The notes below the pieces were generated by a model. It did not search any database. It worked only from the letters and a program-made list of their open reading frames with translations, and was not told where the DNA came from. Positions 34,958-36,657 of a DNA stretch of 64,000 bases are shown piece after piece (position 1 is the first letter of the stretch; every line of letters starts with the position of its first letter). A program made the position numbers and the translations under genes. The stretch lies in the sequence record PV464738.1; one strand, given 5' to 3'. The DNA comes from Escherichia phage RCIP0319.

Positions 34958-35830
34958 CTATTTATTGAAATTAATATTATGGGTGTTAACAAGACGTTCG
35001 CACATGGCGCTGTAAACACCATCATCGTGTATAGAGTCTTCGTGCTTCAGGCCGCTGATTGCGAAGCGTGTAAGCTTGACAATCTTAAGTTCGAACAGAT
35101 GCCACATGTGGTAGTCTTCCGGCGTTTTCAACGTTACGCCATTAGGGAAAAGCACCTGCATAACCTGGCCTACCATCACAGCGTTATCGCCATAGACAGC
35201 GTTGCGCTCACGGAAGGTTGCTGCCATTGCATCAAGAATATCGGCGGCAGTTGCCGGAGATTGTTCAATTTCCACAGCCTTAGTCTCTTCTTGCCCAGTT
35301 GCGCTTTGATCAATTGCTAATTGTTGCACCACTTTACCTGCCTTGCAAAGATTAAATGTAAAAGCGATTTTATTTTGAGCAACGGAATTATAATACAATG
35401 CTTCATCTTGCATCCGCGCGAGTACGTCTTGTCGGTCGTCGAATACATTTATGATTCGATAATCGCCGTGCCGCAATGCGGCCGATAGCCATGCAGATTT
35501 CATAATAGTTGATGGACGTTTGTCGCCAGAGTCTCTCATCTTGATTTTAAATTCATCAAAAGGAAAAACATTGTCCAGACGTTCAAAAGTCACTTGTCTG
35601 TATTTTTCTGGCCTTGCAGTCCAATATTCAACCGCCTCACCGCGAAGAGATGCCGACTCTACTGCTGATGCAATGTGAGGATAGAACTGATCATAACCAA
35701 TACCGCTGTGATAATCATCATAGTCTGACAACGGACCTGCCACCTTGATGCGGTCTAAGCGCCAACGGTCATCAAACAGCGTTCCGTCAAGGTCGAATAC
35801 GTTTAAGATTTCGCTGTTTTTAATGCTCAT
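34958..35830 (-). CDS. HAD-family phosphatase-like domain fused to C-terminal domain of unknown function
   Basis: 290 aa; HAD motif I FDLDGTL, later FDDRQD; C-terminal ~120 aa not recognised; stop overlaps ThyX-like start. Confidence 0.5.
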   Translation of the reverse strand: MSIKNSEILNVFDLDGTLFDDRWRLDRIKVAGPLSDYDDYHSGIGYDQFYPHIASAVESASLRGEAVEYWTARPEKYRQVTFERLDNVFPFDEFKIKMRDSGDKRPSTIMKSAWLSAALRHGDYRIINVFDDRQDVLARMQDEALYYNSVAQNKIAFTFNLCKAGKVVQQLAIDQSATGQEETKAVEIEQSPATAADILDAMAATFRERNAVYGDNAVMVGQVMQVLFPNGVTLKTPEDYHMWHLFELKIVKLTRFAISGLKHEDSIHDDGVYSAMCERLVNTHNINFNK

Positions 35831-36657
35831 CCTTTTGATACTCCATCTTTAGCAACTGGATTGTTGGTGATTGGCATCGCACTCCAAAACTGGATGCGCA
35901 ACTCTTCTTGCTGTGCCGTGGTATCCATCCAATCACGATACCAAGGGCAATGGGCTTTACCGTGACGAGGAAATGCGCACTTACCCATACCAATGCATTG
36001 CGGCTGTAGTAATGGATTCGCCCAAGGGTGCACCTTGAGGACTTCCGCAACCATTGCGCGGAATACTTCTTGATACTCTCCTTGCGTGCGCGTGCACAAG
36101 CGGTTTGACGCCATCTGCTGCAGCGTGCGCAAGTTGAACTTTGCCATGATATGCGTTTGCATATTAGAAGGCAACACGGCACGCGCATCTTGAATCTCTG
36201 CGCCAGCCGCGCGAAGTTCTTGATACAAAGCATCGATAGTCGCCATCGCATCATCCCACTTCTCTGCTAAGTATTGCTTTTGAAGTAAAGATTGGTGCTC
36301 TTCATCAGTCCCAAATGCTTCACATTGATCAATCAACTCTGGATTTTGGTGTGAGAATGCCTTCGGACGAATCGCATCAAAAGCAGAAGATTCCTGAGCG
36401 CGGCTGGTGCGTTCTTGATATGCGCCTGTGCGTGTGCGCACCATCTGATGGGTCATATTCTTTGAAACATCGGTGATGTCAAAGATATAGTCCACAAAGT
36501 CAAAAGGCGATTTGATTGTATCAAGCATGTATCGCCAGTGCTCTTGCTTCTCTGATTCTGTCATCTCAGAGACAGGCTTGCCAGTCATGCGCGTGTTCTT
36601 TGTTTCCAGCAAAAGGTCAAGTGCATCTTGGGTGTATCGAATTAATTCAACTTTCAT
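35827..36657 (-). CDS. thyX: divergent flavin-dependent thymidylate synthase (ThyX-like)
   Basis: 276 aa; ARAVLPSNMQTHIMAKFNLRTLQQMASNRLCTRTQ matches the ThyX C-terminal pattern; RTR-x7-SRA in place of canonical RHR-x7-S. Confidence 0.55.
   Translation of the reverse strand: MKVELIRYTQDALDLLLETKNTRMTGKPVSEMTESEKQEHWRYMLDTIKSPFDFVDYIFDITDVSKNMTHQMVRTRTGAYQERTSRAQESSAFDAIRPKAFSHQNPELIDQCEAFGTDEEHQSLLQKQYLAEKWDDAMATIDALYQELRAAGAEIQDARAVLPSNMQTHIMAKFNLRTLQQMASNRLCTRTQGEYQEVFRAMVAEVLKVHPWANPLLQPQCIGMGKCAFPRHGKAHCPWYRDWMDTTAQQEELRIQFWSAMPITNNPVAKDGVSKG

Follow-up and report, generated by a model that had tools for sequence, protein, structure and literature searches.

The 64,000-nucleotide stretch of Escherichia phage RCIP0319 analysed here (sequence record PV464738.1; hereafter the window) carries on its minus strand, at 35827-36657, a ThyX-like gene, and the question raised by this locus is whether a protein of the ThyX family can still make deoxythymidine monophosphate (dTMP) once several of its best-known active-site residues have been replaced. 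ThyX is an antibiotic target and the textbook case of flavin-mediated methylene transfer, with a mechanism argued from S88, Y91 and H53, all of which are absent in the large phage clade to which this gene belongs. On balance, we lean towards a divergent dTMP synthase, in which the reductive or one-carbon half-reaction would be handled together with a partner flavoprotein encoded nearby. The gene comes from a Wifcevirus-like myophage of E. coli. Its 4.5-kb surroundings are 93-98% identical to 28 sequenced Wifcevirus phages (including FEC19, WFH, ECML-117 and BASEL Bas98-101), in whose records the gene is labelled 'thymidylate synthase' or 'FAD-dependent thymidylate synthase'.

An earlier reading of the DNA, made without database searches (the sequence-only reading), had placed a ThyX-like open reading frame (ORF) at 35827-36657, and this held to the nucleotide, with an ATG start, a TGA stop and a product of 276 amino acids (aa). 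The product matched Pfam Thy1 (PF02511) at E=1.4e-29 and 103.7 bits (gathering threshold 24.8) over profile positions 2-191 of 191 and hence as a full-length domain, and its phage-family match was PHROG 85 'thymidylate synthase'; no match to Pfam ThyA was found. Against TIGR02170, the NCBI thyX equivalog, it scored 79.7 bits, under the cut-off of 87.9 that sets the level for transferring thyX function. Structure prediction, a check that the sequence-only reading had proposed, gave the ThyX fold: an AF2 monomer model built with no ligands reached a pLDDT of 94.6, and Foldseek searches of the PDB with this model returned T. maritima ThyX as the top matches (E~1e-11, TM 0.75-0.78 when target-normalised, ~215 aligned columns), with ThyX making up all of the best 50 matches listed. 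Identity to any solved ThyX was just 19-20%, with single-sequence phmmer values of E ~1e-3, and a family profile of the phage protein matched Mycobacterium tuberculosis ThyX at E=2e-31. The model thus assigns the protein confidently to the Thy1/ThyX fold.

Residue correspondence was established from three agreeing alignments, namely phmmer against PDB 6j61, the family profile against M. tuberculosis, Corynebacterium glutamicum and Thermotoga maritima ThyX, and hmmalign with the same three references. The motif region, aa 74-87 (RTRTGAYQERTSRA; 36397-36438, minus strand), aligned in a gap-free register, R74-T75-R76-T-G-A-Y-Q-E-R-T84-S85-R86-A87 corresponding to T. maritima R78-H79-R80-...-S88-G89-R90-Y91. 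In the hmmalign comparison with T. maritima, six arginines were kept (R74=R78, R76=R80, R86=R90, R159=R147, R177=R165 and R186=R174), as were Q71=Q75, E82=E86 and N175=N163, and six other positions were replaced (I48=H53, F54=H59, T75=H79, T84=S88, A87=Y91 and R190=H178). In an alignment of 78 diverse homologs, reaching as low as 26% identity, complete invariance was confined to R74, R86, R159 and R186; R76 was at least 90% conserved, and the remaining kept positions were near-invariant. The C-terminal pattern reported by the sequence-only reading, ARAVLP...T...N.R.L..M.S.R, is present at aa 158-186.

Published work on the T. maritima enzyme gives these positions a meaning: R174 activates deoxyuridine monophosphate (dUMP), R78 stabilises the reduced flavin FADH-, R90 belongs to the catalytic loop, S88 and Y91 are acids, described as 'strictly conserved', that assist in displacing the carbinolamine hydroxyl, and H53 stacks on folate or reduced flavin, its hydrogen bond to Y91 gating the folate site (PMC8316439, PMC11940539). 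By alignment, the arginines predicted to serve in dUMP phosphate binding, uracil polarisation and stabilisation of the reduced flavin are retained. The 'strictly conserved' Ser/Tyr acid pair is not kept, T84 and A87 standing in its place and V, T, A or I occupying the Tyr position across the clade, and neither is the His53 equivalent, here I48. The substrate-holding half of the active site is accordingly predicted to be intact, and the gate on the folate and reductant side to be gone. Because the arginines that contact dUMP and flavin are invariant, a uracil mononucleotide is favoured as substrate over dCMP, and dCMP was rejected as a candidate, the uracil-contacting arginines being invariant.

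This register also revises how the departure from canonical ThyX should be described. The ThyX signature RHR-x7-S (Myllykallio 2002, quoted in PMC2826268) reads RTR-x7-T in the phage protein, so that two of its four fixed positions differ, which places the protein at the limit of the filter applied in PMC2826268 ('<=2 dissimilar residues'). The sequence-only reading had given this region as RTR-x7-SRA, without the His and with an extra Arg, and had argued from it for an enzyme of changed specificity. RTR (aa 74-76) and the His-to-Thr change proved real on alignment to characterised ThyX proteins; the x7-SRA part was one residue out of register, the true residues being T84-S85-R86-A87. The supposed extra Arg, R86, is the canonical invariant arginine (T. 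maritima R90, M. tuberculosis R107), and the genuine loss is that of the next residue, a Tyr (Y91 to A87). Altered specificity is therefore unsupported, since that arginine is the normal R90, the RHR His position is variable and the dUMP arginines are invariant. The His position is also the least diagnostic change as judged from the alignments, because it varies (T/H/S/N/Q) within the clade, and the changes H53 to I, H59 to F, Y91 to A and H178 to R appear more telling. That the protein is atypical was rightly noticed, and this judgement is better grounded in other evidence: the H53/Y91, H59 and H178 losses, the sub-cut-off equivalog score and the association with flavoprotein, HAD and DUF6378 genes described below.

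We refer to the clade as IF-type, from the residues that replace H53 (I) and H59 (F). RTR was found in all 120 nearest homologs, and among 150 representatives (50% identity) the H53 position was I, L or V in 114 and the H59 position F in 111, with mostly V, T, A or I at Y91 and R, K or Q at H178; the RHR His position was T in 74, H in 29, Q in 12, S in 10 and N in 6. H53 and Y/F91 were retained or lost as a pair, with joint loss in ~100 representatives. The gene was recovered by tblastn from 482 phage records, of which Pseudomonas phages made up 292, for the most part members of the Pbunavirus group (48% identity), and it is carried throughout the group formed by Pbunavirus, Wifcevirus, Myosmarvirus and Kylevirus, where it adjoins replicative DNA polymerase III (Pol III) genes. 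A pattern-based scan of 185,579 GTDB species genomes, using a narrower alignment, returned four loci, none clearly chromosomal, and two of these were phage fragments, 95-99% identical, in a Xanthomonas pisi assembly. The IF-type clade is phage-borne. The two X. pisi DSM 18956 contigs (L005 and L007; NZ_JPLE01000177/216) are ~0.6 kb long, share 95-99% protein identity with the ThyX-like gene of the window and probably represent phage contamination of a plant-pathogen assembly. In long ThyX-like homologs (340-637 aa) the extra length consisted of inteins or unannotated extensions, and no fusion to the partner flavoprotein or to DUF6378 was found among them; the inteins of three homologs (P0160, P0168 and P0260) lie directly before the THQxVRxR motif.

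The conserved partner of IF-type genes is a ~330-aa flavin adenine dinucleotide (FAD)-Rossmann protein, encoded in the window at 37184-38179 on the minus strand (331 aa, with GxGxxG at aa 11-16). Its gene lay no more than 2.5 kb from the ThyX-like gene in all eight IF-type lineages, at 33-60% protein identity, and was missing from all three non-IF Thy1 loci, comprising a canonical-signature phage gene beside FolD-like and deoxynucleoside monophosphate (dNMP)-kinase genes, a form of 573 aa encoded next to Pol III alpha and a chromosomal-looking Thy1 copy. As the lineages are not independent, this linkage by gene position is suggestive of a meaningful association and is not a statistic. An HAD phosphatase and a DUF6378-like domain usually, not always, join the pair, in line with the weight that the sequence-only reading had placed on the HAD neighbour, which does recur with the ThyX-like gene in several lineages. 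Pbunavirus LBL3 and Pantoea phage Kyle both carry the full set of flavoprotein, ThyX-like protein, HAD and ~100-aa domain. The module was also found on a contig from a metagenome-assembled genome (MAG; 34-37% identity), with HAD and the small domain as separate ORFs, and on two unrelated metagenomic phage contigs whose ThyX-like proteins have no Cys motif. The flavoprotein gene adjoins the IF-type gene in the podovirus Cronobacter phage Ss1, it overlaps or abuts the ThyX-like gene in L006 and L018, and in the 207-kb Rhizobium phage TM30 it stands by an IF-type gene whose neighbours are ribonucleotide reductase (RNR) and dUTPase genes, not Pol III, with a DUF6378-like domain encoded ~2 kb downstream.

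The partner belongs to phrog_4828, has no Pfam match and adopts a fold of the UDP-galactopyranose mutase (UGM)/protoporphyrinogen oxidase (PPOX)/flavin amine-oxidase type, and its sequence profile matched PDB entries only at the GxGxxG dinucleotide-binding motif. It is 331 aa long, ~100 shorter than its best structural matches, to which it is 13-17% identical; by comparison, Trypanosoma cruzi UGM has 465-473 aa, PPOX 419-465 aa and bacterial UGMs ~365 aa. GenBank labels vary between 'UDP-galactopyranose mutase', 'oxidoreductase' and 'polysaccharide deacetylase'. We did not name the protein as a UGM, PPOX or amine oxidase, which fold searches cannot separate, nor did we accept the 'UDP-galactopyranose mutase' label as its function, the profile match being confined to GxGxxG and the fold searches being undecided.

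Under the explanation that we favour, the ThyX-like protein would still bind FAD and dUMP and would transfer a one-carbon unit to C5 of dUMP, yielding dTMP for phage DNA replication. Given the loss of the H53-Y91 pair, the flavin gate on the folate/NADPH side, and the constant presence of an FAD-protein neighbour, we infer that the reductive or one-carbon-donor half is probably run differently, with the partner helping, and the coupled HAD phosphatase and DUF6378-like domain probably belong to the same pathway, with the (deoxy)nucleotide pool as their target. Support for dTMP as product comes from the conserved uracil-nucleotide site, the position within a replication module and a whole-genome check of TM30. 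This phage encodes RNR, dUTPase, dCMP deaminase, dihydrofolate reductase (DHFR) and a PurA/PurZ-like gene, and the IF-type gene is its only member of the thymidylate synthase (TS) family: no second Thy1 gene is annotated, and tblastn with an E. coli ThyA query found no ThyA homolog in TM30 (best E=0.02), nor did the same search in the window. TM30 would make dUMP by two routes and recycle folate and would therefore need a dUMP consumer, for which the IF-type enzyme is the sole candidate; as judged from its genes, the set fits ordinary dTMP synthesis. TM30 also encodes an HD '5'-deoxynucleotidase' next to PolA, plus the PurA/PurZ-like synthetase (NC_070966.1, RHph_TM30; L017, L019-L023), and its gene content suggests that its genome may contain 2-aminoadenine.

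Several observations weigh against a divergent dTMP synthase. The catalytic and gating residues S88, Y91 and H53 are missing, H59 and H178 are replaced as well, and the equivalog score is below threshold. A87 occupies the position at which the T. maritima mutants Y91A and Y91F are slowed 100- to 1000-fold (PMC8316439, PMC11940539). Solved structures include no clade member, and the searchable literature contains neither a biochemical assay of one nor a paper that discusses this ThyX clade. Gene order could be conserved partly through shared descent of the replication module, and the role given to the partner flavoprotein is pure inference. Further points concern a simple dTMP role in particular. 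One is the obligate flavoprotein partner. Another is folate: canonical ThyX releases tetrahydrofolate (THF), so that the pairing of DHFR with a ThyX-type enzyme in TM30 is unexpected and hints at a folate chemistry that could be different.

The best-surviving alternative is that the gene encodes a plain, self-sufficient ThyX using FAD, NADPH and methylene-THF, with residue changes that are locally compensated drift and with flavoprotein, HAD and DUF6378 as passengers. The nucleotide-binding arginines are all kept, Phe occurs naturally in place of Y91 in C. glutamicum ThyX, dozens of phage records carry the 'thymidylate synthase' label and most carrying loci also have Pol III alpha/epsilon nearby, all of which would suit such an enzyme. 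The passenger argument is weakened, however, by the persistence of the flavoprotein linkage in the RNR/dUTPase context of TM30 and in a podovirus, by the overlapping or abutting genes of L006 and L018, and by L015, where a non-IF Thy1 gene beside Pol III alpha does without the flavoprotein. Joint loss of H53 and Y91 in ~100 representatives, moreover, looks like a coordinated change of mechanism and not like drift, and we consider a plain ThyX rather unlikely.

A neofunctionalised enzyme would instead make another C5-modified pyrimidine nucleotide, for instance 5-hydroxymethyl-dUMP (hmdUMP) by hydration of the exocyclic methylene, or some other adduct, and the flavoprotein and HAD protein, joined in Wifcevirus by a short-chain dehydrogenase/reductase (SDR) and a VOC protein, would complete a modification pathway that aids restriction resistance. 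This would accommodate the loss of the acid and gating residues S88, Y91 and H53 with substrate binding kept, the score under the TIGR02170 cut-off, and a discrete seven-gene unit with redox and phosphatase enzymes between terminators. It also has precedents in ThyA homologs that make 5-hydroxy-dCMP (PMC13326640) and in gp130 of Bacillus phage SP-15, a proposed hmdUMP synthase (PMC5977210). The reading nevertheless leaves neither TM30 nor the window with a second TS to supply dTMP, and no genes for processing 5-hydroxymethyluracil (kinase, transferases) and no glycosyltransferase were recognised in the annotated genomes.

Restriction data bear on the same point. In the BASEL collection, Wifcevirus phages are reported to be near-totally resistant to restriction-modification by a mechanism that is not known, which a modified base could explain, yet they are still sensitive to EcoP1_I. 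In the window, GATC was depleted (115 observed against 261 expected), HpaII sites were under-represented and several 6-bp palindromes were scarce (BamHI 0, KpnI 0, SacI 2 and XbaI 3). Such avoidance, read from the sequence, is typical of phages with DNA that is open to restriction and not blanket-modified, and it speaks for the favoured dTMP reading and against neofunctionalisation. The sites that remain (EcoRI 15, EcoRV 8 and EcoKI 5) count, conversely, against a simple dTMP role. Pbunavirus genomes are routinely sequenced and restriction-mapped, and to our knowledge no odd bases have been reported from them, which likewise tells against a neofunctionalised enzyme; overall we regard this alternative as improbable. 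A broader and likewise doubtful proposal is a hitherto unrecognised two-flavoenzyme system formed by the IF-type protein and the flavoprotein, with HAD and DUF6378, which might either place a non-thymine C5-modified dUMP in DNA and so explain Wifcevirus restriction resistance, or make dTMP independently of folate or NADPH with a one-carbon unit or electrons supplied by the partner. Finally, a catalytically dead ThyX fold kept for a structural or regulatory role (nucleotide sensing or as a replisome accessory) would account for the absence of Y91 and H53, near-essential in T. maritima, but is highly improbable, as exactly the catalytic arginines and FAD-contact positions are conserved across very divergent phages and inteins lie just before the motif in some homologs, a placement typical of essential-enzyme active sites.

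Compared with known systems, the phage protein shares its Pfam family, fold and C-terminal ARxxLP...N.R...R pattern with canonical ThyX (T. maritima TM0449, PDB 1O26; M. tuberculosis Rv2754c, PDB 2AF6) and differs from it in its Cys4 site, a ~60-aa C-terminal extension, the linked flavoprotein and the six replacements. Canonical ThyX is an FAD-binding homotetramer whose active sites lie where three subunits meet. PolB, the polyoxin uridine monophosphate (UMP) C5-methylase (PDB 4P5A), also belongs to the ThyX family but uses a different substrate; it matched the family profile at E=1.2e-17, and is thus more distant from the phage protein than a genuine ThyX (2e-31 for M. tuberculosis). Unlike PolB, which belongs to antibiotic biosynthesis, the phage protein has a replication context, and nothing indicates a ribonucleotide substrate here. 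SP-15 gp130, the second Thy1 protein of that phage, is likewise a phage ThyX-like protein suspected of non-TS chemistry (PMC5977210); the SP-15 genome encodes two Thy1 proteins and its DNA is known to be hypermodified, whereas the phage analysed here carries a single Thy1 gene and no modification that has been demonstrated. ThyA-family phage enzymes, comprising dCMP and dUMP hydroxymethylases and 5-hydroxy-dCMP synthase, are TS folds repurposed for DNA hypermodification (PMC13326640, PMC8989533). Their fold is unrelated to ThyX, and the 5-hydroxy-dCMP synthases treated in the 2026 papers are homologs of ThyA and not of ThyX.

If the IF-type clade is active, it would reveal which ThyX residues are truly required, and maybe a reductive or one-carbon half-reaction that depends on a partner. 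The clade includes therapeutic Pbunavirus phages as well as fast-replicating, restriction-resistant Wifcevirus phages, and for phage-host defence biology it matters whether the module does no more than raise the dTMP supply or also changes the nucleotide pool or the DNA. These differences have so far been hidden by the automatic label 'thymidylate synthase'.

Beyond the catalytic positions, the ThyX-like protein contains four cysteines, C188, C221, C227 and C237 (35947-36096, minus strand), whose co-occurrence in homologs points to a putative structural metal site. C188 stands in RLC, two residues after R186, and is followed by C221-x5-C227-x9-C237. Of the 78 aligned homologs, 42 contained all four and the others none; among the 150 representatives, C188 accompanied the C-x5-C...C motif in 74, and the motif never occurred without C188. 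The cysteines occur in no solved ThyX, and a Cys or metal site in ThyX was not found discussed in the searchable literature. From the residue pattern, a Zn or Fe-S site is likely. We rejected a clade-essential electron-transfer cluster, as Cys4 is absent from the IF-type members L009, L013, L017 and L018 and present in homologs with a canonical HHHSY signature, an archaeal MAG protein included; judged by its occurrence, Cys4 looks like a dispensable structural metal site of one ThyX branch, undescribed so far. The ~60-aa C-terminal extension ends in NPVAKDGxS. Within the Cys4-bearing subclade its last ~12 aa (35827-35870, minus strand) are conserved as NPVAKDG(K/R/V)S(K/M), with P267 and G272 invariant and the preceding sequence variable, and from this conservation the tail could extend into an adjacent subunit or into a partner.

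In the window the ThyX-like gene forms part of a seven-gene unit bounded by two terminator-like hairpins, one upstream at the end of the preceding gene (38264-38284) and one that closes the unit (33427-33446), both on the minus strand and both at places where terminators are annotated in phage Mansfield. Its order is the 331-aa FAD-Rossmann protein, a 148-aa ORF, the ThyX-like gene, an HAD (PNKP-type) protein with its ~100-aa domain, next an SDR and a 56-aa ORF, and last a VOC-like protein, and the Pol III epsilon and alpha genes come after the second hairpin. The sequence-only reading had the stop of the HAD gene overlapping the start of the ThyX-like gene; the direction is the reverse, the TGA stop of the ThyX-like gene overlapping the ATG start of the HAD gene in ATGA (35827-35830, minus strand), and the HAD gene is therefore downstream and translationally coupled.

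The HAD gene (34958-35830, minus strand) encodes a PNKP-type phosphatase domain (aa ~10-150, DxDGT; Pfam HAD_PNKP E=2e-8, phrog_4889 E=1e-117) fused to a DUF6378-like C-terminal domain of ~100-110 aa (34958-35290, minus strand). The latter is homologous to stand-alone ORFs in L006 (9669-9974) and L009 (9314-9649), and DUF6378 was matched weakly in three of five members (best E=0.0028); no PDB relative of the domain was found, nor any function for DUF6378 in the searchable literature. In TM30 the DUF6378-like domain lies inside a 240-aa protein annotated 'phosphoheptose isomerase'. The SDR gene of the same transcription unit (34209-34892, minus strand; Pfam adh_short E=1e-31) is in a syntenic position that is common to Kylevirus and not seen in Pbunavirus, and the last gene encodes a VOC/glyoxalase-like protein (33463-34014, minus strand) with a weak Glyoxalase_4 match (E=0.0047) and a homolog in Kyle. 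Between the flavoprotein and ThyX-like genes, the 148-aa ORF (36672-37118, minus strand) has a signal-peptide-like N-terminus (MKRITGIALAATAILG...), has no family matches and lies outside the conserved module, its place being taken by different small ORFs in other lineages. Just upstream of the unit, a position kept in Pbunavirus and Kylevirus, a gene at 38312-39157 (minus strand) encodes a 281-aa protein with a long Lys/Glu/Ala-rich repeat (phrog_4765), labelled 'TolA protein' in relatives.

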